A stretch of 64,000 nucleotides of DNA, from assembly GCA_963747345.1 (NCBI GenBank), contig CAVVFA010000030.1:265910-329909 (forward strand), written 5' to 3'. Under the pieces are notes generated by a model. It saw only the letters and a list, made by a program, of their open reading frames with translations, was not told the origin of the DNA and did not search any database. Positions 14,363 through 60,445 of the stretch are shown here, piece by piece; position 1 is the stretch's first letter, and every line of letters starts with the position of its first letter. The DNA is from an uncultured Chloroflexia bacterium (GTDB lineage Bacteria > Chloroflexota > Anaerolineae > Promineifilales > Promineifilaceae). Made by a program: the position numbers and the translations under genes.

Positions 14363-14426
14363 AGTTGCAGAGTGGCAAAGTTGCAGGGTAAAGACACCTT
14401 GCTACTTTGCCACCTTGCAACTCTGT
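14363..14426. repeat. imperfect palindromic repeat, family 2 (GTTGCAGAG / TGGCAAAG / CTTTGCTACTTTGCC modules)
   Basis: Related copy at 40417-40500; intergenic before the WD40 gene. Confidence 0.45.
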
Positions 14427-14438
14427 AACCTTTAACCT

Positions 14439-15368
14439 ATGAAAAAAGAAACTTGTCCAGCCGGTTTTAAGCTTCGGCATATTCTCAAAGCGAGTAATCG
14501 CGCGATTACTCGTATTGCTTGGTCGCCAAACGGCCGTTTACTGGCCTCTGCTTCCTATGATCAAACCGTGCGCCTCTGGAATACGGAAATCGGTAAGGAA
14601 CTGCGCGAGATTCTCGGGTACAGTGGTTCCGTTTTCACCGTCACCATAACCGCTGACGGCATCTATATGCTGTCAGCGTCTAAAAATTCGGTCAAGGTTT
14701 GGGATGTGGCGGGTGAAGACCGCCCACGAACCTTGCGGGGACACAAAGATTATGTGTATACCGTCGCTGTCACCCCAGACGGACGCACCGTGCTTTCTGG
14801 AGCTTATGATCAAACCATCAAATTATGGGATTTTGAGACTGGGGAAACGATAGCGACGATGCGGGGGCATAACGGCCGTGTCAACGACCTCGCCATTAGT
14901 GCCGACTCCCAAATTGCCTACTCCTGCGGTGGAGACAGCCTCATCAAGGTATGGAACCTCGACCAGCAGCGTGAAATCAACACCTTGCGCGGCCATACCG
15001 GCGAAATTCACGCCATCACCTTAAGCCCTGATGGCAGATTGCTTGCCTCAGCCGCTTACGACCACACCATTCGCCTCTGGGATACTGTCACGGGGCACCC
15101 CCTTACCAGCCTTGAAGCGCATACCAAGCCCGTTACTGGCGTTTCCTTTTCCGCAAATAACCAGTTTCTGGCCTCAAAATCGGCTGACGGTACTGTGCGT
15201 ATCTGGCGTTGTTCAGATTGGACAACCGTTGCCATTCTTGCTGAACCACATTCATCCTTTGCCTATTCCGCCATCGCCTTCCAACCGCAAGGCACTCAAC
15301 TCGCCACCTTAGGCGATAAAGACAAAGTTATTCGTATTTGGGATTGCGATTTTTCCGTTTGGGCGTGA
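14439..15368 (+). CDS. WD40-repeat protein (7 blades)
   Basis: Seven xxWD/WN repeats (RLWNTE, KVWDV, KLWDF, KVWNL, RLWDT, RIWRC, RIWDC). Confidence 0.8.
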   Translation: MKKETCPAGFKLRHILKASNRAITRIAWSPNGRLLASASYDQTVRLWNTEIGKELREILGYSGSVFTVTITADGIYMLSASKNSVKVWDVAGEDRPRTLRGHKDYVYTVAVTPDGRTVLSGAYDQTIKLWDFETGETIATMRGHNGRVNDLAISADSQIAYSCGGDSLIKVWNLDQQREINTLRGHTGEIHAITLSPDGRLLASAAYDHTIRLWDTVTGHPLTSLEAHTKPVTGVSFSANNQFLASKSADGTVRIWRCSDWTTVAILAEPHSSFAYSAIAFQPQGTQLATLGDKDKVIRIWDCDFSVWA

Positions 15369-16761: not shown

Positions 16762-16808
16762 GGAGATTAGAGACTGGCATAATCTCCAATCTCTAATCTC
16801 CAATCTCA
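16762..16808. repeat. heptamer-based hairpin element (AGATTAG/AGATTGG family), locus A
   Basis: ggagattagaga-loop-tctctaatctccaatctc; immediately after the His-kinase stop. Confidence 0.55.
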
Positions 16809-16829
16809 ATTATGCATGTTCTTTTATAT

Positions 16830-29712: not shown

Positions 29713-31017
29713 ATTAGTGCGTATCGCTGGCCTAAAATCTTTAATCTTCAATTTTTAATCTTAATTTTTTTATTTCTCACAGCTTGTACGAGCCAACCTA
29801 CGCAAGAAACCATCTCCTTCATGGTGTTTGGTGATCCGGCAGAATACAACGCCTACAAGGAACTGGTGGATGCGTTTAACGGCAGCCAGGCAGAGGTGGT
29901 GGTGGAGTTAACCCACGTGCCATCGCCCAAAGAGTACCGCACGCGGCTGGTGACGGAGTTTGCCGCCGGCACACCATCCGACGTAACGCTGATGAACTAT
30001 CGCCGCTACGCCAGTTTTGCCGCCAATGATATGCTCGCGCCGCTTGGCCCGTTTTTGGCAGAAAGTGATCTCATCAGCCTGGAAGATTTTTACCCCGTGG
30101 CGACGGATGCCTTCATGTGGCAAGGGGAACTGATGTGCATCCCGCAAAACATTTCCAGTCTGGTGGTGTATTACAACGAAGATTTATTTGATGCCGCCGG
30201 ACTCCCCTATCCGGCTGACAAGTGGACGTGGGCTGAGTTTGTGCAAACGGCCGTTTCCCTCACTCGAGACACCGACGCAGACGGCACCATCGACCAGTAC
30301 GGGCTCGGCATTGAACCCTCTCTGTTCCGGCTGGCTCCGTTTGTGTGGCAAAACGATGCGCCCATCGTCGATGATGACGTGCAGCCCACCCGCCTCACAT
30401 TGACGCGCCCCCCGTCACTGGCGGCATTTCAATGGTTCACCGACCTGCATAACGTGCATGGCGTCGTGCCGGGGCGCGTAGAAGAAGCCGCGCAGGACAG
30501 CGAAAGCCGCTTCCTGGCCGGAACCACCGCCATGTACCTCAACAGTCGGCGCGGCGTGCCAACCTACCGCGAAATCGACTCGTTCACCTGGGATGTGGCC
30601 TCACTGCCGAACAACAAAACATCTGCGGGCATTCTCCACTCCGACGCCTACTGCCTCTCGCAAACAACCGTCAACAAAGAAGCGGCGTGGCAGTTTATCG
30701 AATTTGCGAATTCAGTTGAAGGGCAAACCATCATTGCCGGTTCAGGGCGAACCGTGCCGTCGCTCATCGCTGTGGCTCAGTCTGACGCCTTCTTAAACCC
30801 CAGCCAGCCGCCCAGCCGCGCCCACGTGTATCTGGACAATGCCAGCGTGATGCGGCGCGTGCCTGTCATCAGCACCTGGGAAGAAATCGAAAGTGTGGCC
30901 GACGAGGAAATCGAACGCGCCTTCTACGGCGACATCACTGTCGAAGAAGCCGCAAATCTGGCTTTCTGGCGTACGGAGGAATACTTTTTTATGGGGGAAA
31001 CGGCCGTTACTCGTTAA
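29665..31017 (+). CDS. ABC transporter extracellular solute-binding lipoprotein (family 1); start may be the second ATG at 29695
   Basis: ATGA overlap with the upstream permease; lipobox FLTAC; the 5-prime end overlaps a GATT-heptamer repeat. Confidence 0.7.
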   Translation: MINDLRFRGLMINVLKISAYRWPKIFNLQFLILIFLFLTACTSQPTQETISFMVFGDPAEYNAYKELVDAFNGSQAEVVVELTHVPSPKEYRTRLVTEFAAGTPSDVTLMNYRRYASFAANDMLAPLGPFLAESDLISLEDFYPVATDAFMWQGELMCIPQNISSLVVYYNEDLFDAAGLPYPADKWTWAEFVQTAVSLTRDTDADGTIDQYGLGIEPSLFRLAPFVWQNDAPIVDDDVQPTRLTLTRPPSLAAFQWFTDLHNVHGVVPGRVEEAAQDSESRFLAGTTAMYLNSRRGVPTYREIDSFTWDVASLPNNKTSAGILHSDAYCLSQTTVNKEAAWQFIEFANSVEGQTIIAGSGRTVPSLIAVAQSDAFLNPSQPPSRAHVYLDNASVMRRVPVISTWEEIESVADEEIERAFYGDITVEEAANLAFWRTEEYFFMGETAVTR

Positions 31018-31103
31018 TCAATTGAAACCCTGCCACAAGGTAATGCCCGACTAGAACCTTAAATTCTAATCGGGCAGTTTAGAAATTTGGGGCTAAACGG
31101 CCG

Positions 31104-32897
31104 TTATCCCCCAACTTCTCCATTATCAACAGGCTGGGGCTGTGTCTTTTCCAGGAGCATCAAACCCATCAAGCCATCGATCATGCCTGTGCCGCTGCCA
31201 TTACCACTCACCGACACATCCGGCACAATGCGCACACCCTGGTCGCCCACAATCTGCATCATTTGCAACGTGGTATAGCCATGTGTTCCCAGTGCGTTTA
31301 CACCATCACGATACGCTTCTGCTTTGGCCTGACCCGTCCGCCGAATGGCTTCTGCCTCACCAGCCGCGCGTAACTTCGTCGCTTGCGCTTCACCGCCAGC
31401 CCGTTTAATGGCTGCCTGCGCTTGCAGTTCCGCAATCTGCACCCCTTGTTCAGACGTTACCATGTCCCGTTGAATATCTGCCAGGGCGGTGGCGCGAACC
31501 AGGTCTTGCCGTTCGTCTTGGGCCAGCTTTTGCGTTTCGTATGTTTTACGCTCTTCTTCCGCAATCTTGCGGTTGGTTTGCGTGAGCATCAGTTCATCAG
31601 GCGGGGTGATATCACCCAGAAGCGTGTCCAAAGCCTGCACGTCGTACGCGCTGATGGCGCGACGGATATGGTCGGTGGCTTCTTCCTGGCGCTCACTACG
31701 GGCGCTCAAGAAGTCCAGCACCGTATATTCCTGAGCCGAGTTGCGGAAGTAGTTGCCCACAATCGGCTGCAACACATGGTCTACCAGATTTTGCACCGAG
31801 CCGACCCGCGAAATCACCTTGGGCGCTTCAGGCGCACCGATGTGGATAATTTGAGCCACGTCCAGATTGAAGGCGAAACCATCCTTTGACCGTACAGTTA
31901 TGGGCGACAGATGCGCGTCATACTTGTGCGCTTCGGTGCGTCCGGCCCAATTGAGCACGATGTTGGTGGTGGGAACCAGTTCCACTTTCATGACACGGGT
32001 GTTGATGGGGTGCTTGCCGGGATACAACGGCGTTACCCACACACCTTTATGGCCTGGATCAACCAGATTGCCGTGCTTGAAGCCGTCGCCGCTCACATCC
32101 ATGTGGGCTTTACCCACGAAGGCGATGACGATGCCCACATGTCCAATCGGAATTTCAGTCATCGGGAACTGTTCCACATGGACAAACCAGGGGTTCAAGT
32201 TCCAGGAACCGGAAAGTAACACATCTTCTTGTAAGCCACGCCGTCCACCGTTGTTAAGGAAGGTTTGCGCATCCTGGAAGCTGTTATGATCCTGTATGAT
32301 GGGACCAGCGATTTCGCCATTATCAATAGGCTGACCGTCTAAAGTAGTGACAATACCCACTTTGTCTGGCTCGATTTGATAGACGAGCAAATCACGGGCA
32401 GGCATGTTGTGCTTATCCGCATTGTCGGTGCTAATGACAGTAAACAGTGCCGGGTTGATGCGGTAGGTACCAGCCGTGAGAATCGCCAACTGCCGCCCTT
32501 GCTCGCCACCGTTCATCAAGAATTGGGCGGCATCCTGGAAGTTATGACTTTCCACCACTTTGCCTAAGATGCGATGGGCGGGCGTCGGACTGCCATCGGC
32601 AGCGACGACCAGTCCAATTTGACCTTGCGGGATGATGGTAACGGCCGTTTTCTTGACAGTGAATCGCCAGGGATAAAAGCCAAAATGCCAGCCAGGAGCC
32701 AGGGTTTGTGCCTGATAACCCGCCTCGCCTTTGAGGGCGATATGCCGCCCAGGAGGCAGCCGGGGGCCGAACTTTTTAATGACGACGCCGACTTCGCGTT
32801 CATTGATAACCACCAGGCCTAACAAGGATTTGCTGAAGAGCAAAAGAATGAATAGGCCGACTAATACAATACCCATAACCGTTAAAAACGTTACCAT
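31104..32897 (-). CDS. flotillin-like SPFH/band-7 protein (FloT/YqiK family)
   Basis: Start MVTFLT with GAGGA; N-terminal TM; SPFH domain; C-terminal EA-rich coiled coil (AELQAQAAIKRAGGEAQA...). Confidence 0.65.
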   Translation of the reverse strand: MVTFLTVMGIVLVGLFILLLFSKSLLGLVVINEREVGVVIKKFGPRLPPGRHIALKGEAGYQAQTLAPGWHFGFYPWRFTVKKTAVTIIPQGQIGLVVAADGSPTPAHRILGKVVESHNFQDAAQFLMNGGEQGRQLAILTAGTYRINPALFTVISTDNADKHNMPARDLLVYQIEPDKVGIVTTLDGQPIDNGEIAGPIIQDHNSFQDAQTFLNNGGRRGLQEDVLLSGSWNLNPWFVHVEQFPMTEIPIGHVGIVIAFVGKAHMDVSGDGFKHGNLVDPGHKGVWVTPLYPGKHPINTRVMKVELVPTTNIVLNWAGRTEAHKYDAHLSPITVRSKDGFAFNLDVAQIIHIGAPEAPKVISRVGSVQNLVDHVLQPIVGNYFRNSAQEYTVLDFLSARSERQEEATDHIRRAISAYDVQALDTLLGDITPPDELMLTQTNRKIAEEERKTYETQKLAQDERQDLVRATALADIQRDMVTSEQGVQIAELQAQAAIKRAGGEAQATKLRAAGEAEAIRRTGQAKAEAYRDGVNALGTHGYTTLQMMQIVGDQGVRIVPDVSVSGNGSGTGMIDGLMGLMLLEKTQPQPVDNGEVGG

Positions 32898-33070
32898 GTT
32901 GATAATCCTCTTGACGCACACAAAATAGAGACCGGCTTGCTGCTGCGCCATCCAGGCAAACCGAAATACGCTGCCAGCAACGACACAGGTCAGTTTGGAT
33001 ACCCGCCTTCGCGGGTATGACAGACATGGGATGACTGTGTTGTTTCTGCTAGCTAGCAGAATATAAAAAT

Positions 33071-33088
33071 GTGAAACGGCCGTTTCAC
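33071..33088. repeat. 18-bp perfect palindrome GTGAAACGGCCGTTTCAC
   Basis: Read directly; intergenic. Confidence 0.65.
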
Positions 33089-33358
33089 ACCAAAACAGAG
33101 TGATATAGGGGTTTCTAGGTGAGCGTTACGCTCAGGGAGGGAAGGAAAAAAGTTGGTTGCTATTCATAATCCACCACCACCGGGGCTGTTACTATCTTGC
33201 TGATTCTCACGTCAAGCCCCTGTCGACGAGAGGAATATTGATGCTTATAATTAGGTGGGAAGAAAATAATGCTTCGACCCATATACGGGGAATATTAGCA
33301 ATATTCCCCGATAATGTCAATATATTCCGGTCTGATTCCAGCACGACCCCTTTTTTAT

Positions 33359-34402
33359 ATGACTGAATCACTTGCTACCACATCCGCTAGCGTCTTGATT
33401 GTAGATGACAATCCGGTGAATTTGCGCTTGCTTATTCGTATTTTGACCGATATGGGTCATAAAGTGCGTCCGGCGAAGAACGGCCGTTTAGCCCTCGACT
33501 CTGCCCAATCTGCCCCACCCGACCTGATTATGCTCGACATCATGATGCCGGAGATGGACGGCTTTGAAGTACTGCGCGAACTCAAGCGAGACCCCAACCT
33601 GCGCGATATTCCGGTACTCATCATCTCCGCGTTGGATGACATGCCCAGCGTGGTCAAAGGCATCAAACTCGGCGCGGACGATTACCTGCCCAAACCATTC
33701 GAGCAAATCTTGCTGAAAGCCCGCATCGAAGCCTGTCTGGAGAAAAAATCGCTGCGTGACCGCGAAAAAGAGTATTTACAGCAAATTGAAGCGGAGAAAA
33801 AGCGAGCAGACGAACTGCTGCATGTTATCCTGCCCGACCCGGTAGTGGCGGAATTGAAGGCCACGAATCAGGTGCAGCCGCGTCTTTACCAAAATGTGGC
33901 TGTCATGTTTGCCGATGTGGTCGGTTTTACGCCCTACAGCGAAAGCCATTCGCCACAGGATGTCATCAGCAATTTGCAAACAATGGTTGAAGCATATGAA
34001 ACGATTGCCCTGGCATACAAGCTGCAAAAAATCAAGACGATTGGGGATGCCTTCATGGCAACGGGCGGCCTGCTCGTGCCCATGGAGAATCCGGTGGCGC
34101 AGTGCATCGCGGGCGGCCTGGAAATGATTGAGATGATGCACACCTTACCCGCCCAATGGCAGGTGCGCATTGGCATCCATGTGGGGCCGGTGATGGCGGG
34201 CATTGTGGGGCACCGGCAGTATTTGTTTGACGTGTGGGGGGATACGGTGAACACGGCGCAGCGCATCGAAAGTCATGGGCAGCCGGGGGCGATCAACTTG
34301 AGTCGGGCGGCTTTTGCACAGGTGGATGGGGGGATAACGGCCGTTGCTATCCATACCATCCCCGTCAAAGGCAAAGGCTCCCTGGAAATCATTCAAATCT
34401 AA
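33359..34402 (+). CDS. response-regulator receiver fused to class III adenylate/guanylate cyclase
   Basis: REC (VLIVDDN...IMLDIMMPEMDG...KP) then cyclase homology domain (FADVVGFT...KTIGDAFM...GIHVGPVMAGIVG). Confidence 0.75.
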   Translation: MTESLATTSASVLIVDDNPVNLRLLIRILTDMGHKVRPAKNGRLALDSAQSAPPDLIMLDIMMPEMDGFEVLRELKRDPNLRDIPVLIISALDDMPSVVKGIKLGADDYLPKPFEQILLKARIEACLEKKSLRDREKEYLQQIEAEKKRADELLHVILPDPVVAELKATNQVQPRLYQNVAVMFADVVGFTPYSESHSPQDVISNLQTMVEAYETIALAYKLQKIKTIGDAFMATGGLLVPMENPVAQCIAGGLEMIEMMHTLPAQWQVRIGIHVGPVMAGIVGHRQYLFDVWGDTVNTAQRIESHGQPGAINLSRAAFAQVDGGITAVAIHTIPVKGKGSLEIIQI

Positions 34403-34427
34403 AACACAATCACTATGGTTCGTAATT

Positions 34428-34820
34428 CTATTCTAGTTGTGTCCAGCCTTTGTGTTCTTTACCAATTTGCAAAGCTCCAAAAAGAAGAAGTGCGCTTAAA
34501 AAACCAGAAATTGATGAAACAAAGCTTAGTCCCGTCAGCAAACTTGTAATAAATGACAGAAAAGTTGTTGCCACAAAGCCCCAGAACCCCCATTTCTTCC
34601 AACGAAACAAGGCGATTACGAAGATGATTCTCAGAATATTATCAAGTATAAAGTATGGAAATAACCAGACTGGTATGTTTGGATCAATCTCTCTGGCAGT
34701 TAGACTATTGCATAAATTGAATAGGATAAATAATGAATTTCCAAACAATAAAAAAACCAACCAAGCTGTAAGAAATTTATGCCTAATTTTTTGTGTCGTC
34801 ATGTACCGGCTCCTTTCCAA
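34428..34820 (-). CDS. AT-rich cargo gene: small 4-TM membrane protein
   Basis: ORF in an AT-rich insert between duplicated eamA tails. Confidence 0.4.
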   Translation of the reverse strand: MERSRYMTTQKIRHKFLTAWLVFLLFGNSLFILFNLCNSLTAREIDPNIPVWLFPYFILDNILRIIFVIALFRWKKWGFWGFVATTFLSFITSLLTGLSFVSSISGFLSALLLFGALQIGKEHKGWTQLE

Positions 34821-34840
34821 GAATTAATTTAATTTTAACT

Positions 34841-34977
34841 TATTCACTACGTCTCGTCAGCACCACCAACCCCGCGAACAACAGGCCAATCCCCAACCAG
34901 GCTAGTGGCTCCAATGATTCGCCCACCACGAAAATACCCAAGAGGGCTGCGGTTAACGGTTCGGCTAGGGTGAGGGA
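34841..34977 (-). repeat. eamA 3-prime-tail copy 1 (encodes SLTLAEPLTAALLGIFVVGESLEPLAWLGIGLLFAGLVVLTRRSE*)
   Basis: Translated by hand; peptide identical to the resident eamA C-terminus apart from about 17 synonymous changes; no palindrome at its edge. Confidence 0.65.
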
Positions 34978-36329
34978 ATGGTTCGTTTTTGACAATTATC
35001 TTCGCCGGGGAAATTAAATGGCGCACTTTCAGAATCAACTTGTGGCCCAACAAAGTTAACATCAATAGGAATTTGCTTATAGCTTTTATCCAGCGCATCA
35101 AATAAATAAAAATCCTCATTCGTGCGAAGCAAGAGTTGATCTACACTGCCTACCGCATGGACTTCATCAATTGGACCTTCTGGGAAATCAGCGGCAAAAA
35201 AAGAATCGAAAATAGATCCACTTTCTATATCTACCCAATAGATGTGCGTGGTGGTTGTGAAATTTTGCCATTCTCGACCTGCAAATACCAATCGTGTCTC
35301 ATCTAAACTCCACCAAATGTTGTCACCAGTTATTCCGCCAAAATCGCTTTCCGTCGGACTCACTTGATATAAACTGTTTGTGCTTGTATCAACAATATCA
35401 ACCCATCCGATGCCAGTTTCTCCTTGATCTTTACTTTGATAACCAGCATAAGCCACATAACGGCCGTTAGGAGACCAGACAATGTACTGAATCCCAATCT
35501 TCTCCGTATGAAATGTTAATTGCTCACGCACATCACCATCAGGGGACGTCCGAAAGAGTTGTGTGAGGCCATCTTCATCTACATGTTTAAATGCAAGCCA
35601 CTGACTGTCTGGAGACCAAGCAAACGTATATGCCTTACCATCAGCTGTTAAAATCTGCGGGTTGCTCGAATCGGCTAGGTTTACAATGCCAATATCTGTG
35701 AATTCCGCGTCTTCATAATACTGTTCGCCATATAAAATGTTATAAGCCAACCACTTCCCATCAGGGGATAGACGGGTCACTTCATTGTAGGCTCCTTCTG
35801 GTGAAAGCAATATTTCCCAATCCAAATCTGGTTTTTGCCAAACAATATCTCCATTTAGATTAACTAAACCCTGACTCGTGTAGATTTGACATCCATCTCC
35901 ATACCAAAGATCGCCAAATGGATGATCTATTTTCCCTCTAACTTGCCGTACATTAGCATTGCCAATATCTAAAATGGCTACAAAATCCCCCTGATCATCA
36001 AAATTACGGTAGCCGACTAGCGGGCCTTTCAAGAAAGCGCTTTCACCATCAAAATTTTCGCTTTTGACCTGATCTGGTATTACTTGTTCTGTCACAGGGG
36101 TCATTGTTTCTATTACTGGCGTGTTATGAATTAAAGTTGAAGTTGGCTCAGGTATCTCCGTAATTGTTTCCATTGGGGTATTCTCTGAAATTCCAGCCGG
36201 ATGCGTCGCTGTTGGCTCGGGGTTCTTTGTTTCAACATCTGTCGCTGTACAAGCAGCAAGAATAAAAATGATAATAAATAGAATTTTTCCGCTAAAAAAT
36301 TTTATCTGGTTATTGATGGAAAACTTCAT
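34965..36329 (-). CDS. AT-rich cargo gene: TolB-like beta-propeller lipoprotein
   Basis: Lipobox ILAAC; repeated WSPDG/WSPNG blades; the 3-prime end runs into repeat copy 1. Confidence 0.55.
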   Translation of the reverse strand: MKFSINNQIKFFSGKILFIIIFILAACTATDVETKNPEPTATHPAGISENTPMETITEIPEPTSTLIHNTPVIETMTPVTEQVIPDQVKSENFDGESAFLKGPLVGYRNFDDQGDFVAILDIGNANVRQVRGKIDHPFGDLWYGDGCQIYTSQGLVNLNGDIVWQKPDLDWEILLSPEGAYNEVTRLSPDGKWLAYNILYGEQYYEDAEFTDIGIVNLADSSNPQILTADGKAYTFAWSPDSQWLAFKHVDEDGLTQLFRTSPDGDVREQLTFHTEKIGIQYIVWSPNGRYVAYAGYQSKDQGETGIGWVDIVDTSTNSLYQVSPTESDFGGITGDNIWWSLDETRLVFAGREWQNFTTTTHIYWVDIESGSIFDSFFAADFPEGPIDEVHAVGSVDQLLLRTNEDFYLFDALDKSYKQIPIDVNFVGPQVDSESAPFNFPGEDNCQKRTIPSP

Positions 36330-36378
36330 GCGTTGTTCATCCTCGTTAGCTTTACTATTCAGTTCTATTCATTCCGAT

Positions 36379-36525
36379 TATTCATTACGTCGTGTCAGCA
36401 CCACCAGCCCCGCGAATAACAGGCCAATGCCCAACCAGGCCAGCGGCTCCAGCGATTCACCCACTACGAAAATGCCTAAGAGGGCGGCGGTTAACGGTTC
36501 GGCTAGGGTGAGGGAAACGGCCGTT
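36379..36525 (-). repeat. eamA 3-prime-tail copy 2 ending in AACGGCCGTT (36516-36525)
   Basis: Same 46-aa peptide (one change, S to N) with many synonymous differences; upstream in-frame TGA shows it is an orphan tail. Confidence 0.65.
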
Positions 36526-36591
36526 GCCACTCATACCATCCCCGTCAAAGGCAAAGGCTCTCTGGAAATCATCCAAATTCAATCACCGTAA
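36526..36591 (+). repeat. duplicate of the REC-adenylate-cyclase 3-prime tail (TAVATHTIPVKGKGSLEIIQIQSP*), fused to eamA-tail copy 2 at the palindrome
   Basis: Compare 34346-34402 (TAVAIHTIPVKGKGSLEIIQI*); differences mostly synonymous. Confidence 0.6.
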
Positions 36592-36846
36592 ATATTTTAA
36601 TAGGGTGAAAAAAGATGAAATCATCGTTATCAAACCGCCAAAGAAAAATAATAATGCAAACAGGTATGATAGCAATTTTGAAACATCAGACTCAGCCCAA
36701 CCTTTCGGAGCTAATGGTCTCTGACGATTTTCTCTTTCCCAAAATTCATCCCATTTTTTCGTATCTTTCAGCATCTTATAGACTAAGAAACAGCCAATGC
36801 TGAATGCAATTATTGAGATAATTAGCGGAAAAATTACGTCAATCAT
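36583..36846 (-). CDS. AT-rich cargo gene: small 2-TM membrane protein
   Basis: ORF only; hydrophobic N- and C-terminal segments. Confidence 0.35.
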   Translation of the reverse strand: MIDVIFPLIISIIAFSIGCFLVYKMLKDTKKWDEFWERENRQRPLAPKGWAESDVSKLLSYLFALLFFFGGLITMISSFFTLLKYLR

Positions 36847-36880
36847 GATCTTCTACCTCTAAAATCAAACTGTGATTTCT

Positions 36881-37793
36881 TTATTCACTACGCCTAGTCA
36901 ATACCACCAGCCCCGCGAATAACAGGCCAATCCCCAACCAGGCCAGTGGCTCCAATGATTCGCCTACCACGAAAATGCCCAGGAGAGCGGCGGTTAACGG
37001 TTCGGCTAAGGTGAGGGAAACGGCCGTTGCTGAACTCACCGTCTTCAACCCAATTGTAAACAGCAAATAAGCACAAGCCAACGTGATCACGCCCAAATGG
37101 AGCGATACCACAAACCCGCTTGGCTCCGTTAGCCAGCTCATATCCAATACAAAGCAGAGCGGCAGCATCAACAGCGCCCCCAGGCCAAAAACGACTCCCG
37201 CAACAACGGTAGACGGCCGTTCTCCGACCAAGAATTTACTGGCAATGGTATACACCGCATACGCCGCGCCTGCGCCCACCGCCAACAGCATCCCGCCCAC
37301 ATCGACCTGAATGCTTTGGCCGCCGCCGATGAGCAGCGTGCAGCCCACAATCGCCAAACCTGTCGGCAATCGCCCACTGCCGCCCCGGCCACGTCCGAAA
37401 CACGATCCAGGTCAGCAATCCGGCCATAATCGGCGAACTACCGATGCCCACAATCGTGCCCATCGCCACGCCTGCTCGCGCCACACCCGCAAAAAACAAA
37501 AGTTGATAGCCCACCATCCCCAATACAGCCAAAACCAACGGCACAATCGGCCATCGACCGCCGTGCCGCCAGCCGCCACGCGCAAACATCAAGCCTGCCA
37601 ACAGCGCCCCGCCCAGCACCATCCGCACCGTTCCCACCGCCAGCGGCGATGTGCCGGCTGGCGCAAAGGTTTGGGCCGTGCCAGTGGTCCCCCACAGTGT
37701 TGCGGCTAATAAAACAAACCAGGCGCCTGAGATTGTGCGGGATTTTGCGGCCATTAAAAGACTGAGATTGAAGATTGGAGATTGGGAGACCAA
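36881..37793 (-). pseudogene. DMT-superfamily (EamA-like) transporter, apparent frameshift between the two EamA domains; its last 46 codons are tail copy 3 (36881-37028)
   Basis: ORF 37236-37793 (EamA domain 1) degenerates after IMAGLLTWIVF; ORF 36881-37369 in another frame carries EamA domain 2; switch at 37370-37400 (C4/G-rich). Confidence 0.6.
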
Positions 37794-37820
37794 TCTCTAA
37801 TCTCCAATCTCTAATCTCTC
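37763..37820. repeat. heptamer-based hairpin element, locus B
   Basis: gagattgaagattggagattgg-gaga-ccaatctctaatctccaatctctaatctc then T5; overlaps the hydrolase stop. Confidence 0.55.
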
Positions 37821-38636
37821 TTTTTCTAGCCAGTTTTGAATGGTTTCAGCAACCAGTAACGGCCGTTCCATGGGCAGCATGTGGCCTAAATCCGCCATCT
37901 CTACAAAAGTGGCTGACGGTTGTAGTTCTTGCCACAACTGCCAGGAATCGGGGAACAAGGTGTCTGATTTCGTAGCACGAATCGCCAGGGTGGGCTGTGT
38001 CACCTGCGGAATGCGCTCCCACACGGAAAGTGGGAGTCGGGCATAAACACGGGCTTCCCACTCACGTGGATAGGTTAAGACAAACTCGCCGTTCTCTTCA
38101 TGTATGCCATTGTTAACATAATCCCACAACACGGCGTCGGACCAGCGCTCAAAAACAGACTTGACTCTGAAATGGTCAAACGCCGCCTGCCGCGACTGCC
38201 AACGATTGCGCCGGTTCAAGGCTCGCAGCACAAAGGGCTGTTCTGCCGCTTTGTCAGGATGGGCGGCGGCCAATTGCAAAATCTGCGGCGGCAAAAACAC
38301 CGGTTCGATCAGCACGATGGCGCGGAACAAATCAGGGCGCTGCACAGCGGCATACATCGTCGCCACCGCCCCCAGCGAATGTCCCATGCCGATGACATCA
38401 CGCAAGCCTTCCTGGTCGAAGAACTGAATCAAATCGTCAGTGAAATCCTGCCAACTGGTTAGTTCATCGGGATTGGCTGTGGGGCCATAACGGCCGTTGT
38501 TTCATCGCCAGCACGTGATAATTTGCCAGAAATGGCTCCATAAATTGCTGATAACAGGCAGGTGGATACGCGTTGGCGTGGGCAAAATGGAGCAGCGAAC
38601 CGCTGCCCCCGAAGTCTACAAAAGGAATGGAAAACA
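37797..38636 (-). pseudogene. alpha/beta-hydrolase fold protein (about 280 aa) with a frameshift inside an AACGGCCGTT palindrome
   Basis: N-part in frame a (MFSIPFVDFGGSGSLLHFAHANAYPPACYQQFMEPFLANYHVLAMKQR), C-part in frame b (GRYGPTANPDELTSWQDFTDDLIQFFDQEGLRDVIGMGHSLGA...); frames switch at 38489-38498. Confidence 0.55.
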
Positions 38637-38696
38637 TGGGGAATTGTTAATTGTAAATTGCCAATTGTCAATGAAAAAATGTATATCTGTTAACTT

Positions 38697-39317
38697 GTGT
38701 ATGAGAAACCGGACTTGACATTTGAGAAACCATCGGCAACCCTATATCATCTCGTGAACACAAGTGATTTGAAACCCATCTCTAACTTCTGCGTAAAGGC
38801 ACTTATCAACAGCTTGCCGCACAAACTACCGGTAACTGATTACCGAAAACTGATTACCCAAAATGGTGACATGATGACACAAGACCAAGAACCCATCCGC
38901 ATTATTATCGAGGAAGAAGACATTCCGCTGATGCCCGAAGACAAAAATCGACGGGGTCCAGATGTTAAAGGCGCGGCTCAAAATGCAGCCAACAGTGCGG
39001 GACAAGTGGCAGGCAGTACCGCCAAAAAAGCCTGGGATAGTGAATCACGCAAGAAAGTAACGGGAACCGTTTCTCGAGGTGTGGCCTCGGTCACAGCCAA
39101 GAGCAGCAAAGCCATCGCCAACAAAACAGCCGACATCATTGAGCAGCAAACCCGCCAACAAGTGGAAGCCATGCAGGCCCGCGCTCAAGAAATCGACTGG
39201 AAGGCGGAAGCACAAAAAGGAACCGCGACCGGATTGAAATGGCTCAGTCAACAAGTAAGCGAACTGTCTAACCGCTTCACAACACCCACTGAAAAAGATC
39301 CCCCAAAGAATCCATAA
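38697..39317 (+). CDS. hypothetical protein (possibly starting MMTQDQEP at 38870); Ala/Lys/Gln-rich
   Basis: ORF only. Confidence 0.3.
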   Translation: MYEKPDLTFEKPSATLYHLVNTSDLKPISNFCVKALINSLPHKLPVTDYRKLITQNGDMMTQDQEPIRIIIEEEDIPLMPEDKNRRGPDVKGAAQNAANSAGQVAGSTAKKAWDSESRKKVTGTVSRGVASVTAKSSKAIANKTADIIEQQTRQQVEAMQARAQEIDWKAEAQKGTATGLKWLSQQVSELSNRFTTPTEKDPPKNP

Positions 39318-39406
39318 AAACAGCCTCTTTATCCAGCTTAATCAAGTTCCGTTCACTTCTCACTAATTTTGATTGGACACAGGGTGGCAAGCAATTGAAA
39401 TCTGAA

Positions 39407-39808
39407 TCAGGTGGCAGCATAAGGACGATCTTGCCACAACTGTAGGCATACAGCCGCACCCAGCCCCACTTCTGCGAAGAGGACGATGCCCAGTATGAAC
39501 CAAAATCGGGCAGACGCTGACAGCGTGATGAAGCTGAAAGATGAAAGAACATTTGCAGGCAGCCAATTCAAATTCACGATGCCCAAAGTGGCAAAAATTA
39601 CCACTAACAGCAAGGTAATCATTCCCCCAAAACACAAAGCCAACGCAATGTCTAAAAACTGTAACTGAAATCGCTCTGGCTGAGGGCGCGGTTGGGCTTC
39701 AACTTGTAGCATGATGCGATTCACCAGTCCCGGAGGTAAAGCCACCTGCGGGTAGCTTTGCAACACCTCGTCAATCATTGATTCTGTACGTTGATTGTCA
39801 TCGTTCAT
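39407..39808 (-). CDS. putative membrane anti-sigma factor
   Basis: Overlaps the 3-prime end of the ECF sigma gene; single TM after a cytoplasmic N-domain. Confidence 0.45.
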   Translation of the reverse strand: MNDDNQRTESMIDEVLQSYPQVALPPGLVNRIMLQVEAQPRPQPERFQLQFLDIALALCFGGMITLLLVVIFATLGIVNLNWLPANVLSSFSFITLSASARFWFILGIVLFAEVGLGAAVCLQLWQDRPYAAT

Positions 39809-40358
39809 AGGATTCTTCCAGATCTTCAAGTTTTTCCCGCAGTAAACGCCTGGCTCGATAAATGCCTGTTTTAACGGTGCCTAAGGGCATTTCTGTAACT
39901 TCGGCGATTTCTGTATAGCTCATTTCTTGCAGGTGGCGCAAGGTAATTAACAGCCGGTAACTCTCTGGTAAATTATCGATGGCATTGTGCAATGATAACT
40001 TGATTTCTTCAGAGAGCAGATCGGTTTCGATGGCAGCACGAGTATCAGGAAGGGTAACGGCCGTTTCCGTATCCAGCGCCAATAGTTCAGTTTTTAAGCG
40101 GGGCAGTCTGTTGTAACAAAGATTTATGACAATGCGATACAGCCAGGTGCTGAACTGCGCCTTTGCCTGAAATCGGGGTAATCCCTGCCACGCACGCATA
40201 AACGCTTCTTGTGCCACATCTTCAGCCTCTTGTGGGCTGTTTAATGTGCGGAACGCCAGATTGTAAACGAGGGCAGCGTGCATCGTTACCAACGCCTCAA
40301 AGGCGCTTGTATCGCCCTGTCTGGCCTGTTTGATCAACGCTTCTTCATCCTGACTCAC
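39798..40358 (-). CDS. ECF-family RNA polymerase sigma factor
   Basis: Sigma-70 region 2 (LVYNLAFRTL...EDVAQEAFMRAW) and region 4 (SYTEIAEVTEMPLGTVKTGIYRARRLLR). Confidence 0.8.
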   Translation of the reverse strand: MSQDEEALIKQARQGDTSAFEALVTMHAALVYNLAFRTLNSPQEAEDVAQEAFMRAWQGLPRFQAKAQFSTWLYRIVINLCYNRLPRLKTELLALDTETAVTLPDTRAAIETDLLSEEIKLSLHNAIDNLPESYRLLITLRHLQEMSYTEIAEVTEMPLGTVKTGIYRARRLLREKLEDLEESYER

Positions 40359-40416
40359 AAAATCACACTGTTCCTTACTGTATTAGACAATGATTATCTA
40401 AAAAAGTTTCAATGAG

Positions 40417-40500
40417 GGGCAAAGTGGCAAGGTTGCAGAGTTTTAAGGTGGTAGTGTGACCAGGTTACTTTGCTACTTTGCCCCCTGGCAACCCTGCCAC
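40417..40500. repeat. imperfect palindromic repeat, family 2, second copy
   Basis: ggcaaagtggcaaggttgcagag ... ctttgctactttgccccctggcaaccctgccac. Confidence 0.45.
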
Positions 40501-40580
40501 TTCTCAAATCTGTGAAACTTTTTCTACACAGTACGGTCTAATTTAGTGAAAGGCTCAAAAATATCAGGTCGGAGGTTTAC

Positions 40581-40739
40581 ATGAAGGATTTTATTGAAAC
40601 GTTAGCCATTCTGCTTTCACTCGCATTAATTGCGAGTCCGGTGATTGGCTATGCTATTTTTAACCGCTATCTAAAACGAAAAGAAACGGCCGTTCTCGAA
40701 GAGTATGGCCTTATTTCCAAAAAGGAGAAACAATCATGA
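40581..40739 (+). CDS. 52-aa single-TM peptide (below the ORF-track cutoff), ATGA-coupled to the next gene
   Basis: MKDFIETLAILLSLALIASPVIGYAIFNRYLKRKETAVLEEYGLISKKEKQS, translated by hand. Confidence 0.25.
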   Translation: MKDFIETLAILLSLALIASPVIGYAIFNRYLKRKETAVLEEYGLISKKEKQS

Positions 40740-41161
40740 ATGACGCCATTGAAGCACTTGCCATTGGTCTTTCAGTTACAATGATTTTTAGCATTCCCTT
40801 TGCATTCTTCGCGTTTATGCGCTATTTGCGCTACAAGGAAACGATTGCCTTAGCTGAACGAGGTCTGCTGCGCCCCCAACGCCAAAACAATGACCGGCAA
40901 ACGACAAAATGGGGCTTTGTCATCTCAGCCGTGGGTTTGGCGTTCACCTGTGGCTTATGGCCCATAGGTTTTATGGGTGACGCCCCTAAATTCCCGTTAG
41001 GTTTTGGTCCCTGGATGTTAATCGGCCTGCTGCCCTTATTTTTTGGCATCGCCCTCATTTGCATCGGCGAACTCAACAGAGAAGATCGTCTAGCAGAGGA
41101 TGCAATTGACCAGATAGATCCGATCCCACCGCACAAAACGGGAGGGGTACCCTATGAATAA
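40736..41161 (+). CDS. 3-TM membrane protein of unknown function
   Basis: ORF plus hydrophobic segments. Confidence 0.35.
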   Translation: MNDAIEALAIGLSVTMIFSIPFAFFAFMRYLRYKETIALAERGLLRPQRQNNDRQTTKWGFVISAVGLAFTCGLWPIGFMGDAPKFPLGFGPWMLIGLLPLFFGIALICIGELNREDRLAEDAIDQIDPIPPHKTGGVPYE

Positions 41162-56559: not shown

Positions 56560-56617
56560 GAGATTGGAGATTAGAGATTGGAACGTGAAGCAATCTCCAA
56601 TCTCTAATCTCCAATCT
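56560..56617. repeat. heptamer-based hairpin element, locus C (21-bp perfect stem AGATTGGAGATTAGAGATTGG)
   Basis: A-run, stem, 10-nt loop, stem, then a T-rich stretch. Confidence 0.6.
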
Positions 56618-56622
56618 TATTT

Positions 56623-57931
56623 ATGAAAGTTTACCTCCACAGCATCGGCTGCCGCCTGAACCAGAGCGAAATCGAGACCATGGCCCGCCAGCTTCTTGCC
56701 GCCGGACATGAGATTGTCACAGAAACGGCCGTTGCCGATAAAGTCATCATCAACACCTGCGCCGTCACCGCCGAAGCCGCCAGCGACGCCCGCAGTCATG
56801 ACGCGGCGCATCCACCGCCAAAACGACGCCGCCGAAATTCTGCTCACTGGCTGTTACGCCACCATCGCCCCCGACGAACTGGGTAAAGTGGCCGGAGCCG
56901 GACGCATCGTCCTCAACAAAGACAAAGCTAACCTCGTGCCCCTGCTCGACCCCAAAGCCCGCATCGACCTGCCCCTGTTTGACCAGGAACCCGTCATGCG
57001 CGAATTTTTGGCAGGCACGGCGGGCAATACCCGCGCCTTCATCAAAGTGCAGGATGGCTGCAACAACAAATGCACCTTCTGCGTCACCACGATTGCGCGA
57101 GGCGAAGGCCAAAGCCGCCACTTGGGCGACATCATCGCCGAAATTCAGGCGCTGACCACCGCTGGCTACCAAGAAGCGGTGCTTTCAGGCGTGCATATGG
57201 GCAGTTATGGCTACGATTTTGGCAACCGAGCTGGACTGATGGAACTGGTGCAGGCCATCCTCGACCACACCGACATCCCCCGCTTGCGCCTCTCCTCGTT
57301 GGAACCGTGGGACATTGCGCCCGGCTTCTTTACCCTGTGGCAAAACCCGCGCTTGCTGCCCCATCTGCACATGCCCCTGCAATCTGGTTGTGACCGCACG
57401 TTGCGGCGCATGGCGCGGCGTACCAATCAGGTCAGCTTCCGTGAACTGGCTGACGCCGCCCGCGCCCACATCCCCGACCTCAACCTGAGCAGCGACATCA
57501 TCGTCGGTTTCCCTGGCGAAACGGAAGATGAGTTCCAAACCAGTCTTGATTATGTGCGTGAGATTGGTTTTTCGCGGCTGCACGTCTTCACCTACAGCCA
57601 GCGCCCCGGTACGGCCGCCGCCACCATGCCCGACCAGATTCCAGGCCCCGTCAAAAAAGAGCGCGTGCAGCGCATGATTGCCCTGGGCAACGAGATGAGC
57701 CTCGCCTTCCACCAGCAGTACGAAGGCAAAACGATGAATGTGCTCTGGGAAAGCAGTGTCGGTGCGAACAGCCACGGCCTGCGCTGGGTGGGCTACACGG
57801 ACAACTACATCCGCGTCAACGGACACGGCCCTGCTGATTTGTTTAATAGGGTGACGACTGTGAGGTTGGAAAACGCGAGGGTTGATGGCATGGATGGCGT
57901 GATTTTAGGTAAGGGCCAGGCAATCGTGTAA
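56623..57931 (+). pseudogene. MiaB/RimO-family radical-SAM methylthiotransferase, apparent frameshift after the N-terminal MTTase domain
   Basis: ORF 56623-56886 (MKVYLHSIGCRLNQSE...IINTCAVTAEAASDARS then nonsense); ORF 56696-57931 in another frame (...ILLTGCYA..., CNNKCTFC radical-SAM motif, TRAM end); switch at 56775-56800. Confidence 0.7.
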
Positions 57932-60373: not shown

Positions 60374-60379
60374 AACAAA

Positions 60380-60435
60380 AGATTAGAGATTGGAGATTTG
60401 GGATCGATAATCTCCAATCTCTAATCTCTAATCTC
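60380..60435. repeat. heptamer-based hairpin element, locus D
   Basis: agattagagattggagat-loop-atctccaatctctaatct. Confidence 0.6.
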
Positions 60436-60445
60436 AGGTATTTAT

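Follow-up and report, generated by a model that had tools for sequence, protein, structure and literature searches.

Minimal mobile elements are known from Neisseria (PMC1797815, citing Saunders & Snyder 2002); in the account given by the citing article, homologous recombination in the flanking DNA is held responsible for their exchange. At T6SS and Rhs loci, runs of orphaned 3' gene regions have been explained by homology-facilitated illegitimate recombination, a process found to be infrequent in the cases where measurements were made (PMC5361080). In cyanobacteria, site-specific or illegitimate recombination and enhanced transformation have been reported (PMC4390886; bioRxiv 10.1101/2024.09.10.611283) for HIP1, the highly iterated palindrome GCGATCGC (PMC4390886, PMC5861425, bioRxiv 10.1101/2024.09.10.611283). 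The role of such palindromes has been an open question for about 30 years, and the movement of small flexible genes without obvious mobile elements is poorly documented beyond a few model groups. The locus described here provides a readable record from an uncultured Chloroflexota bacterium, with alternative fillings, a stack of two such fillings, and displaced gene tails by which the donors can be dated.

Conserved flanking genes and a variable slot

The window, i.e., the whole stretch of DNA analyzed, is 64 kb long, and its nearest named relatives are Chloroflexota/Ardenticatenaceae MAGs. The conserved left flank of the locus is a cyclase gene (33359..34402, plus strand; ORF start possibly at 33314) that encodes a response-regulator receiver and a class III adenylate/guanylate cyclase (Pfam Response_reg, 8.9e-30; Guanylate_cyc, 4.3e-43). 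Its orthologues share 84-97% amino acid identity and the same synteny. The conserved right flank is the body of eamA (37029..37793, minus strand), an EamA/DMT transporter gene with Pfam EamA on both halves of the protein. The two genes are convergent, and the variable slot lies between them. An earlier note on this DNA had taken both host genes to be intact; as sequenced, however, eamA is frameshifted in the window, where a 1-nt insertion near 37364, absent in three relatives (L120, L081, and L082), breaks it into two ORFs.

The gene order Band_7, cyclase, eamA, and alpha/beta-hydrolase is kept in the related loci L081, L082, and L084/L085. No fewer than six distinct fillings or downstream sequences were found in the cyclase/eamA slot, with each of six related lineages having its own. 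In L081 the slot is filled by geneC alone, and in L084/L085 by a DUF389 gene. In L082/L083, a geneA homologue is accompanied by a displaced tail that is truncated and by a gene for a 460-aa choice-of-anchor-D protein. L086 and L120 differ again, each with unrelated sequence downstream. The locus is a hotspot, as had been proposed from the window alone: relatives with the same flanking genes hold different cargo. Its make-up is that of a slot in conserved synteny with differing whole-gene cassettes, and neither mobility genes nor transposon terminal repeats were found in it.

Cargo genes

Three genes occupy the slot in the window, all on the minus strand. geneA (34428..34820) encodes a 130-aa hydrophobic protein without a family match, and its homologue at the same position in L082/L083 has 44% amino acid identity. 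Gene X (34965..36329) encodes a predicted lipoprotein of 454 aa with PD40/TolB-like beta-propeller repeats (Pfam PD40, 5e-9; weak NCBIfam matches to TolB and peptidase propeller). As the earlier note had recognized, the 3' end of gene X is fused into the first eamA tail copy (et1, see below), which supplies its last 13 nt including the stop codon. Gene X is complete, because its homologues also end in ...NCQ; homologues at 65 and 55% identity occur in unrelated contexts. geneC (36583..36846) encodes an 87-aa hydrophobic protein, 84% identical in amino acids to the one that fills the slot of L081. The cargo is AT-rich, with a GC content of 34-45% vs. 55-64% in the flanks, in agreement with the initial reading.

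Pfam and NCBIfam searches detected no recombinase or transposase domains in the cargo, and no recombinase was found within 3 kb of it or in any related locus. There was no tRNA in 30000-41000, no Rfam family and no attC-like structure at the locus, so the claim that integrase, transposase and attC-like sites are lacking held up in the domain, tRNA and Rfam searches. The cargo gave no toxin, immunity or defence matches. The tail sequences were not found in viral contigs, and no phage link was detected.

Displaced gene tails

The 3' end of eamA is present three times on the minus strand, each copy being 138 nt long with its stop codon. Copy 1 (et1, 34840..34977) and copy 2 (et2, 36378..36515) are displaced, and copy 3 (et3, 36881..37018) is the resident tail at the eamA body. 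The 45 codons of et1 encode a peptide identical to that of the resident tail; et2, which ends in ...RRNE, carries an S/N change, the sole non-synonymous one among the three. Pairwise differences amount to 15, 13, and 17 of 138 nt, and repeats of this length at 88-91% identity cannot be due to chance. Alignment and Nei-Gojobori estimates (dS 0.46-0.60, dN 0-0.01) agree with the three near-synonymously diverged copies first seen by eye, the coordinates of which had been off by one base. The tail of the cyclase gene is duplicated as well, also as previously noted. Its functional last 18 codons plus stop (ct1, 34346..34402, plus strand) recur as a displaced copy (ct2, 36526..36591, plus strand) that is collinear with L081 over the end of the cyclase gene and the DNA downstream of it. 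The two are 92% identical over the 63-nt repeat, palindrome included; ct2 has one I-to-T difference, and its stop codon TAA is changed to CAA. No inverted repeats were found within the tails, the palindrome itself being the sole one.

When all tail comparisons are taken together, dS ranges from 0.31 to 0.60 and dN from 0 to 0.02. For reference, the cyclase gene differs from that of L086, the closest relative, by a dS of 0.38, and the eamA body differs from that of L120 by 11.5%. Between et1 in the window and the orthologous displaced copy in L091 there are 10 synonymous and 0 non-synonymous changes. Under neutral decay in situ, the chance of this pattern is roughly 0.28^10 (∼3e-6), which indicates that these differences were imported from functional alleles. 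From the pattern of substitutions, the displaced tails evidently stem from functional eamA alleles of diverged lineages, with a dS of ∼0.3-0.6, near that of the core gene. The proposal that the copies had evolved as functional coding DNA elsewhere is borne out by this synonymous-only divergence; the donors, in contrast, were not sibling genomes as suggested, being ∼9-12% diverged in nucleotides. The lack of amino acid changes in displaced tails, even in an arrangement common to two lineages, could instead reflect selection on the tails. Gene X has a dS of just 0.12 between the window and L091, far below the tail dS, and the cargo and the tails therefore differ in history. Crossovers located within the tails or close to them would give rise to such separate histories.

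A hyper-abundant palindrome

As had been observed before, AACGGCCGTT sets the exact end of eamA tail copies 2 and 3. This sequence is a 10-nt palindrome with the core CGGCCG. It lies in the cyclase gene at 34336..34345, where it is read as Thr-Ala-Val and forms the left boundary of the 2180 bp that the window has in excess of L081; at 36516..36525, where it joins et2 to ct2; and in eamA at 37019..37028, where it is again read as Thr-Ala-Val, on the minus strand. The reading frame of the palindrome is the same in the two genes. The cyclase-gene palindrome is found at the same position in L081, L082, L084, L085, and L086, and the position of the eamA palindrome is kept in L081, L082, L085, L091, and L120.

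The palindrome had been regarded as a feature of the locus and its site of integration. This view was not upheld: AACGGCCGTT occurs 61 times in 64 kb vs. 0.04 times expected (∼1 per kb). Close relatives have 0.5-1.5 copies per kb, whereas distant ones have none. For a decamer that is hyper-abundant genome-wide, occurring in both gene tails is nothing unusual. We found no description of the AACGGCCGTT motif in the literature searched.

Joints between fillings

Comparison with relatives showed that the window is collinear with L081 at 31095-34402 and 36516-38681, with 2180 extra bp between two palindromes. It is collinear with L082 at 33256-34928, via geneA into the displaced tail. The window thus consists of the filling geneA plus X, followed by the filling geneC, joined head-to-tail at the palindrome. 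In L091, an independent contig and assembly, the order is eamA body, palindrome, et2', X, AACGAACCAT, and et1', without the geneC unit. There, the et2 equivalent is attached to the eamA body and serves as its functional tail.

The three displaced-tail joints are not alike. At 36516, et2 is joined to ct2 through an intact palindrome, and this joint is a single instance. It falls exactly on the longest exact one-strand match between the cyclase and eamA 3' regions, AACGGCCGTTGC(T), a stretch of 12-13 nt made up of the palindrome plus GC(T). The joint of gene X and et1 carries AACGAACCAT (34978..34987, minus strand), a palindrome-like remnant that matches AACGGCCGTT at 6/10 positions, in the same register as the palindromes of copies 2 and 3 (∼2% by chance); this joint is identical base for base in L091. 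The in-register remnant hints at a possible palindrome role at et1 too, which would favour a palindrome-specific process. In L082, codons ∼18-46 of the displaced tail are kept and the joint lies mid-tail, with no palindrome; this tail differs from the resident one of L082 at 20/87 nt (16 synonymous changes, 2 non-synonymous). Since just one of the three joints has an intact palindrome, the palindrome does not act as the general integration site. The variable joint positions fit illegitimate joining and do not fit a site-specific recombinase with a fixed core. When relatives are compared, clean alleles of the slot part exactly at the stop codons, and the palindromes do not mark these limits. 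This sharp limit, like the much lower divergence of gene X than of its flanks, may be an indirect sign of transfer by natural transformation and homologous recombination in the flanks.

Discussion

We consider it somewhat more probable than otherwise that the locus is a slot of the minimal mobile element type, filled by homologous recombination in the flanking genes, sometimes with an illegitimate far end that leaves displaced tails. Small AT-rich genes for surface or membrane proteins, all co-oriented with eamA, would be swapped in and out of the slot, the donor DNA coming from related lineages ∼10% or more diverged and the conserved flanking genes serving as homology. Most swaps would be clean. 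Occasionally one end would be homologous and the other joined illegitimately upstream of the recipient's own tail; the tail copy of the incoming fragment would then become functional, and the old tail would be pushed outward as a fossil. In a first such event, X may have come with the tail et2 and displaced et1, which stayed beside geneA. In a second, a complete geneC-type filling would have been joined to a complete geneA+X-type filling by means of the 12-13 nt of identity in AACGGCCGTTGC, supplied by the genome-wide palindrome present in both genes. The et2/ct2 joint would be the only novel joint requiring an illegitimate event at the palindrome. The illegitimate border of this second event lies at the longest available microhomology, and its other border was presumably homologous. 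The form of the DNA (linear or circular), its entry route, the order of events and the role of the palindrome (plain microhomology vs. dedicated site) are what we infer around the tandem of two fillings.

The earlier note had proposed a circle formed via the palindromes. The joint does have exactly the geometry expected if two whole intergenic alleles were connected palindrome to palindrome, but the circular intermediate does not follow from it: linear DNA with one homologous and one illegitimate end gives the same product in one step. A palindrome-bounded module that left the donor chromosome as a circle by palindrome-to-palindrome recombination, and re-integrated at a palindrome or via short gene-tail homology, would carry exactly the et2/palindrome/ct2 joint. 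A crossover in the palindrome plus cyclase tail would reproduce the observed gene order. The motif is maintained and hyper-abundant, the X/et1 joint has its in-register decamer, and cyanobacterial HIP1 has been linked to recombination and transformation (PMC4390886; bioRxiv 10.1101/2024.09.10.611283). The mid-tail joint of L082 and the clean alleles that part at stop codons speak against such a circle. Moreover, at ∼1 palindrome per kb, palindrome-specific integration should land genome-wide, yet the 64 kb contain no other palindrome-flanked duplicated segment. We regard the circle as unlikely, although it deserves consideration. A more doubtful proposal is that AACGGCCGTT itself is a HIP-like recombination site in this Chloroflexota clade, in frame near many gene ends, which lets whole intergenic modules move between related genomes, as circles or otherwise, without an element-encoded recombinase. 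If so, the tandem joint would be its natural product and the 6/10 remnant at copy 1 an older, decayed one. Tandem duplication via short repeats is a common process, and unequal sister-chromosome exchange at the two palindromes, the longest shared identity, would duplicate the intergenic unit and yield the same joint, one unit being replaced later by a foreign filling through homologous recombination. This takes two events rather than one, the right homology arm for the replacement would be merely the 138-nt tail, and the 9-12% difference in both the cyclase tails and the et2/et3 pair means that at least one whole unit, flanks included, is foreign anyway. Such duplication in situ is improbable.

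The tandem direct repeats of a target-gene 3' end recall the classic footprint of accretion (partial tRNAs: bioRxiv 10.1101/2020.12.28.424599), which would suit an integrase acting in trans on the eamA tail as att site, with integrase-less, cis-mobilisable modules accreted in tandem like CIMEs or degenerate tycheposons. The searches described above revealed no integrase at or close to the locus, its cargo included, and none in related loci; nor did they reveal a tRNA or, in viral contigs, any tail sequence. The extent of the repeat varies (full 138 nt, full plus palindrome, 87 nt), whereas a fixed crossover core common to all copies would be required and none was seen. One joint fuses the tails of two different genes, which att x att recombination at eamA would not do. 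We therefore hold this explanation to be very improbable. The precision of the joint, and an inserted unit that runs exactly from palindrome to palindrome (2180 or 503 bp), would also be expected if an EagI-like enzyme cut CGGCCG in incoming and resident DNA and the compatible ends were ligated. Such ligation would not discriminate between loci or orientations, whereas the unit occupies its cognate locus, in its cognate orientation, among ∼1000 sites per Mb, and genomes normally avoid restriction sites rather than enrich them; this is less probable still. An assembly chimera of two co-existing strains comes last in probability. The organism is known from metagenome-type assemblies alone, related contigs are short and of low coverage, and the locus is polymorphic in the population. 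Nevertheless, the two sides of the joint share 12-13 nt only, too little for a k-mer or overlap join, which makes a de Bruijn chimera implausible there. The three tails are 9-12% different and are thus not collapsed or duplicated reads. The independent assembly L091 has the tail-X-tail arrangement too, and L082 and L083 both carry the displaced tail.

The locus also brings to light, outside cyanobacteria, a hyper-abundant palindrome comparable to HIP1, with one natural recombination joint exactly on it. If palindrome joints turn out to recur, the metagenomes of this clade could be used to test directly, without culturing, whether such motifs promote recombination or gene transfer.

Among described systems, integron cassette arrays were rejected: the repeats between genes are coding tails without internal inverted repeats, and there is no integrase. 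As in tycheposons (bioRxiv 10.1101/2020.12.28.424599), tandem cargo is separated by partial 3' ends of the target, and new arrivals would push older ones outward. The target here, however, is a protein-coding gene instead of a tRNA, repeat extents vary, one tail-to-tail joint links two genes, and there is no recombinase; a tycheposon or other integrase-borne island was rejected, with no tyrosine or large serine recombinase within 3 kb or in related loci and no tRNA in the region searched. AACGGCCGTT resembles HIP1 in being a short palindrome, hundreds of times over-represented and mostly inside genes, with exact copies far exceeding near-misses and positions conserved between diverged relatives. 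It is not HIP1 proper, given a different motif of 10 nt vs. 8 and a host whose nearest named relatives place it in the phylum Chloroflexota.

The C-terminal displacement arrays of Rhs, CDI and T6SS loci (PMC5361080) share with this locus an anchor gene followed by displaced 3' fragments, each with cargo, with the presumably newest unit adjoining the gene body and each event probably having one homologous and one illegitimate end. Two orphaned eamA tails were found in the window and one in L082/L083. Unlike the variable toxin tips of those arrays, the displaced ends here encode the same peptide; EamA is a transporter, the cargo gave no toxin or immunity matches in the searches run, and a variable toxic tip with an immunity gene was rejected. 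Further differences are the joint that links the tails of two different convergent genes and the unusually long microhomology, which comes from a genome-wide palindrome. With the minimal mobile elements of Neisseria, as the citing article presents them, the locus has in common a slot between conserved genes, alternative whole-gene cassettes and low-GC cargo without mobility genes. It differs from that account in its gene ends duplicated as scars, its two stacked fillings and its host among the uncultured Chloroflexota.

Variable DNA Between Two Convergent Genes

The relatives of this locus were reached through cyclase homologues (84-97% aa identity). Their contigs keep the synteny Band_7 / cyclase -> <- eamA / alpha-beta-hydrolase, and the DNA in the slot between the convergent cyclase gene (33359..34402, + strand, in the window) and eamA (body 37029..37793, - strand) differs from contig to contig. 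L081 carries geneC only, and L084/L085 carry a DUF389 gene. In L082/L083, which come from two separate runs, a geneA homologue is followed by a truncated displaced eamA tail, a 460-aa choice-of-anchor-D protein and the resident tail. L086, with the closest cyclase (91% nt identity), has yet another sequence downstream, and the sibling eamA of L120 has its own. The relatives thus show the opposite of one identical arrangement everywhere; because the same flanking genes enclose different fillings, the locus is a real hotspot, as an earlier note had proposed.

The nearest named proteins are from Chloroflexota/Ardenticatenaceae MAGs, and a search with the 49-aa tail protein matched L120 only. L081 (a JGI contig) contains the tail-plus-palindrome pattern, and an exact DNA scan for it found none in a metagenome contig collection without samples of this kind. 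The metagenome scan with the C-terminal half of EamA gave relatives at ≤55% identity only, none with the palindrome or duplicated tails. In the genome-contig scan with the cyclase, the best among the matches listed was 58% identical (L001) and lay in another gene neighbourhood.

Duplicated Tails and Cargo Genes

The window has the final 45 codons of eamA, stop included, three times on the - strand: the displaced copies et1 (34840-34977) and et2 (36378-36515), and the resident et3 (36881-37018). Both et2 and et3 end exactly at the 10-nt palindrome AACGGCCGTT; after et1, the corresponding place in register is taken by AACGAACCAT, which agrees with the palindrome in 6/10 nt. The pairwise differences are 15, 13, and 17 per 138 nt, with one amino-acid change (S/N, in et2), dS of 0.46-0.60 and dN of 0-0.01 (Nei-Gojobori). 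A second cyclase-tail copy, ct2 (36526-36591, +), follows the et2 palindrome; it differs from the native copy (34346-34402) by one I/T change and by CAA in place of the stop TAA. Both duplications had been described in the earlier note, and both hold. Homogenising gene conversion that keeps the tails protein-identical was rejected, as the copies within the genome are still 9-12% apart.

The displaced tails are readable as short ORFs on the - strand, of 51 aa from TTG (34840-34995) and 50 aa from GTG (36378-36530). That of L082, at about 1662-1751, reads as an ORF of about 30 aa from ATG. Given their own starts and unchanged residues, the displaced tails may be translated as small membrane peptides.

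Between the tail copies lie geneA (a 130-aa hydrophobic ORF), gene X (34965-36329; a 454-aa PD40/TolB-like beta-propeller lipoprotein) and geneC (an 87-aa hydrophobic ORF). This cargo is AT-rich, as claimed (34-45% GC vs. 55-64% in the flanks). The final 13 nt plus stop of gene X are supplied by et1, and gene X is complete up to the joint because its homologues end at ...NCQ. A programmed -1 frameshift joining X to et1 at CAAAAAC seems unlikely, the slippery site being weak. We searched the slot region for a recombinase, a defence gene, a tRNA, an Rfam family and a convincing terminator and found none, in agreement with the reported lack of an integrase.

One claim failed, namely that both host genes are intact: a 1-nt insertion near 37364, missing from L120, L081, and L082, splits eamA of the window into two ORFs of 185 aa and 162 aa. 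The eamA of L120 has a 1-nt deletion of its own at about 733-760. This points either to independent decay of eamA in this lineage or to sequencing errors in both contigs.

Two Fillings in Tandem

By BLAST, window 31095-34402 and 36516-38681 match L081 continuously, the window having 2180 extra bp from the cyclase palindrome (34336) to the junction palindrome (36516), and window 33256-34928 aligns with L082, starting in the cyclase, crossing geneA and ending in the displaced tail. From this collinearity the window consists of two complete fillings, geneA+X and then geneC. Each is bounded by a cyclase tail of its own (left) and an eamA tail of its own (right), and one palindrome joins the two head-to-tail; the palindrome-to-palindrome joint of the earlier note (et2, palindrome, second cyclase tail) is indeed present. 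L091, an independent 1.7-kb contig from another sample, reads eamA body-palindrome-et2'-X-AACGAACCAT-et1', where et1' and et2' are the counterparts of et1 and et2. In its lineage the working eamA tail is et2, and the geneC unit is absent. L091 confirms the tail-X-tail structure and gives the predicted one-filling form.

A Hyper-Abundant Palindrome

AACGGCCGTT occurs in 61 exact copies in the 64-kb window vs. 0.04 expected (e.g., at 1590, 2232, and 63035), with only nine one-mismatch variants. In 39 of the 57 intragenic copies the frame is xxA-ACG-GCC-GTT (Thr-Ala-Val), which is also the frame of the cyclase and eamA palindromes, and the flanks are G-rich 5' and C-rich 3'. The palindrome was noted in the window, L081-L087, L091, and L120; its density is 0.5-1.5 per kb in close relatives, and it is absent in more distant ones. 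In the cyclase gene and in eamA it keeps its position between lineages whose dS is about 1. We did not find a description of the motif in the literature searched; one motif search returned primers only.

BLAST homology to L081 and L084 begins at 31096, but this point was rejected as a second palindrome breakpoint: homology runs on upstream through a conserved hairpin, and the palindrome there merely overlaps the Band_7 stop codon. This hairpin, GCCCGACTAGAA...TTCTAATCGGGCA (window 31040-31105, L081 about 2700-2766, L084 about 160-223), lies directly downstream of the Band_7 gene and probably acts as a terminator that the lineages have conserved. We also discarded the idea that palindromes captured X, since none border its 65% homologue in L087.

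Other repeats were seen in the window. Intergenic heptamer arrays of AATCTCC/AATCTCT, often in inverted pairs (16763-16820, 37757-37825, 56560-56631, and 60379-60448), gave 12 matches to a 20-mer vs. 0 expected, and one of them lies directly upstream of eamA. Cyanobacteria have similar short tandem heptamer repeats. A 51-nt repeat pair, ACCTTGCTACTTTGCCACCTTGCAAC..., is found at 14396-14446 and 40467-40517 (73% identity).

Joints and Proposed Mechanism

No exact match longer than AACGGCCGTTGC(T), 12-13 nt, is shared on one strand by the 3' regions of the cyclase gene and eamA, and the et2/palindrome/ct2 joint falls exactly on this sequence. No selection acts on the position of this joint, because collinear DNA restores both working genes; the sequence therefore shows that recombination took place at the palindrome. 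This is the sole joint that requires an illegitimate event at the palindrome. An assembly chimera is unlikely, as the joint shares only those 12-13 nt. The remaining two displaced-tail joints are off an intact palindrome, one at the 6/10 remnant at 34978 and one mid-tail in L082, and the retained tails vary in length (138 vs. 87 nt). This variation argues against a site-specific recombinase with a fixed core and for illegitimate end joining. Three observations contradict an integrase acting in trans: the repeat extents vary, one joint runs from the tail of one gene into the tail of another, and no integrase, tRNA, or phage link is present. IMG/VR yielded no relatives of the tails or cargo, and a phage or satellite vector was dropped as a candidate.

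The earlier note had read the locus as a circular, palindrome-specific mobile module. The circle is geometrically sound, and integration via palindrome plus cyclase tail yields the observed order, but no observation requires a circle and the 64 kb hold no palindrome-bounded duplications elsewhere. Such a module is unproven, and two of the three joints count against it; of that interpretation we retain the hotspot, the origin of the tails from functional alleles and the palindrome-to-palindrome joint. Restriction and ligation at CGGCCG would not find the locus, with the cognate site and orientation to be picked out among about one site per kb.

In the simplest single-step account, DNA from a diverged relative would pair homologously in one flanking gene, and its far end would join at a microhomology upstream of the recipient's own tail, so that the donor tail turns functional and the recipient tail is displaced. 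Outward from eamA, the oldest event would be that of et1 beside geneA; X would then have arrived with et2, and lastly geneC with et3 and ct2, the donor cyclase palindrome being joined to the recipient eamA palindrome. Events could equally well have run in the mirror-image order, with the cyclase gene as anchor.

History From Divergence

Among the five tails of the window and L091 all distances are roughly similar (7-12% nt, dS 0.31-0.60) and hardly any residue has changed, which bears out their origin as functional alleles. For comparison, cyclase dS is 0.38 between the window and L086, and the eamA body is 11.5% diverged from L120; tail divergence matches the core divergence of the window genome from its nearest relatives. 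Gene X, compared with L091 (210-1574), has dS of 0.12 overall and dN/dS of 0.36. Since this dS is below that of the tails, the cargo is younger than the tails flanking it, an age gap that would be expected if exchange crossovers fall in or beside the tails. X is mosaic between the two lineages: its first third has a dS of 0.04 and the rest 0.16, which suggests an internal recombination breakpoint near 36080, and its dN/dS suggests a surface lipoprotein under relaxed or diversifying selection.

Between et1 and et1', which have a common joint with X, there are 10 synonymous and 0 non-synonymous changes. The probability of this pattern under neutral decay in place is about 3e-6, so either recombination brought the tail differences in from functional alleles or selection acts on the fragment. 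The displaced and resident tails of L082 differ at 20 of 87 nt (16 synonymous changes, two not), and the displaced one again resembles a relic left by a functional allele that had diverged.

Comparison With Known Systems

The system is best classed as a hotspot of the minimal-mobile-element kind that bears 3'-end displacement scars. The clean replacements (L081, L084/L085) are scar-free, with divergence beginning exactly at the stop codons, and are like the minimal mobile elements of Neisseria (PMC1797815). The scars follow the same logic as homology-facilitated illegitimate recombination and the "orphaned 3' region" arrays of T6SS/Rhs loci (PMC5361080). Of the side results, the most notable is a HIP-like, hyper-abundant palindrome that occurs in Chloroflexota and carries one natural recombination joint; AACGGCCGTT behaves like HIP1 of cyanobacteria (PMC4390886, PMC5861425), although sequence and phylum differ.
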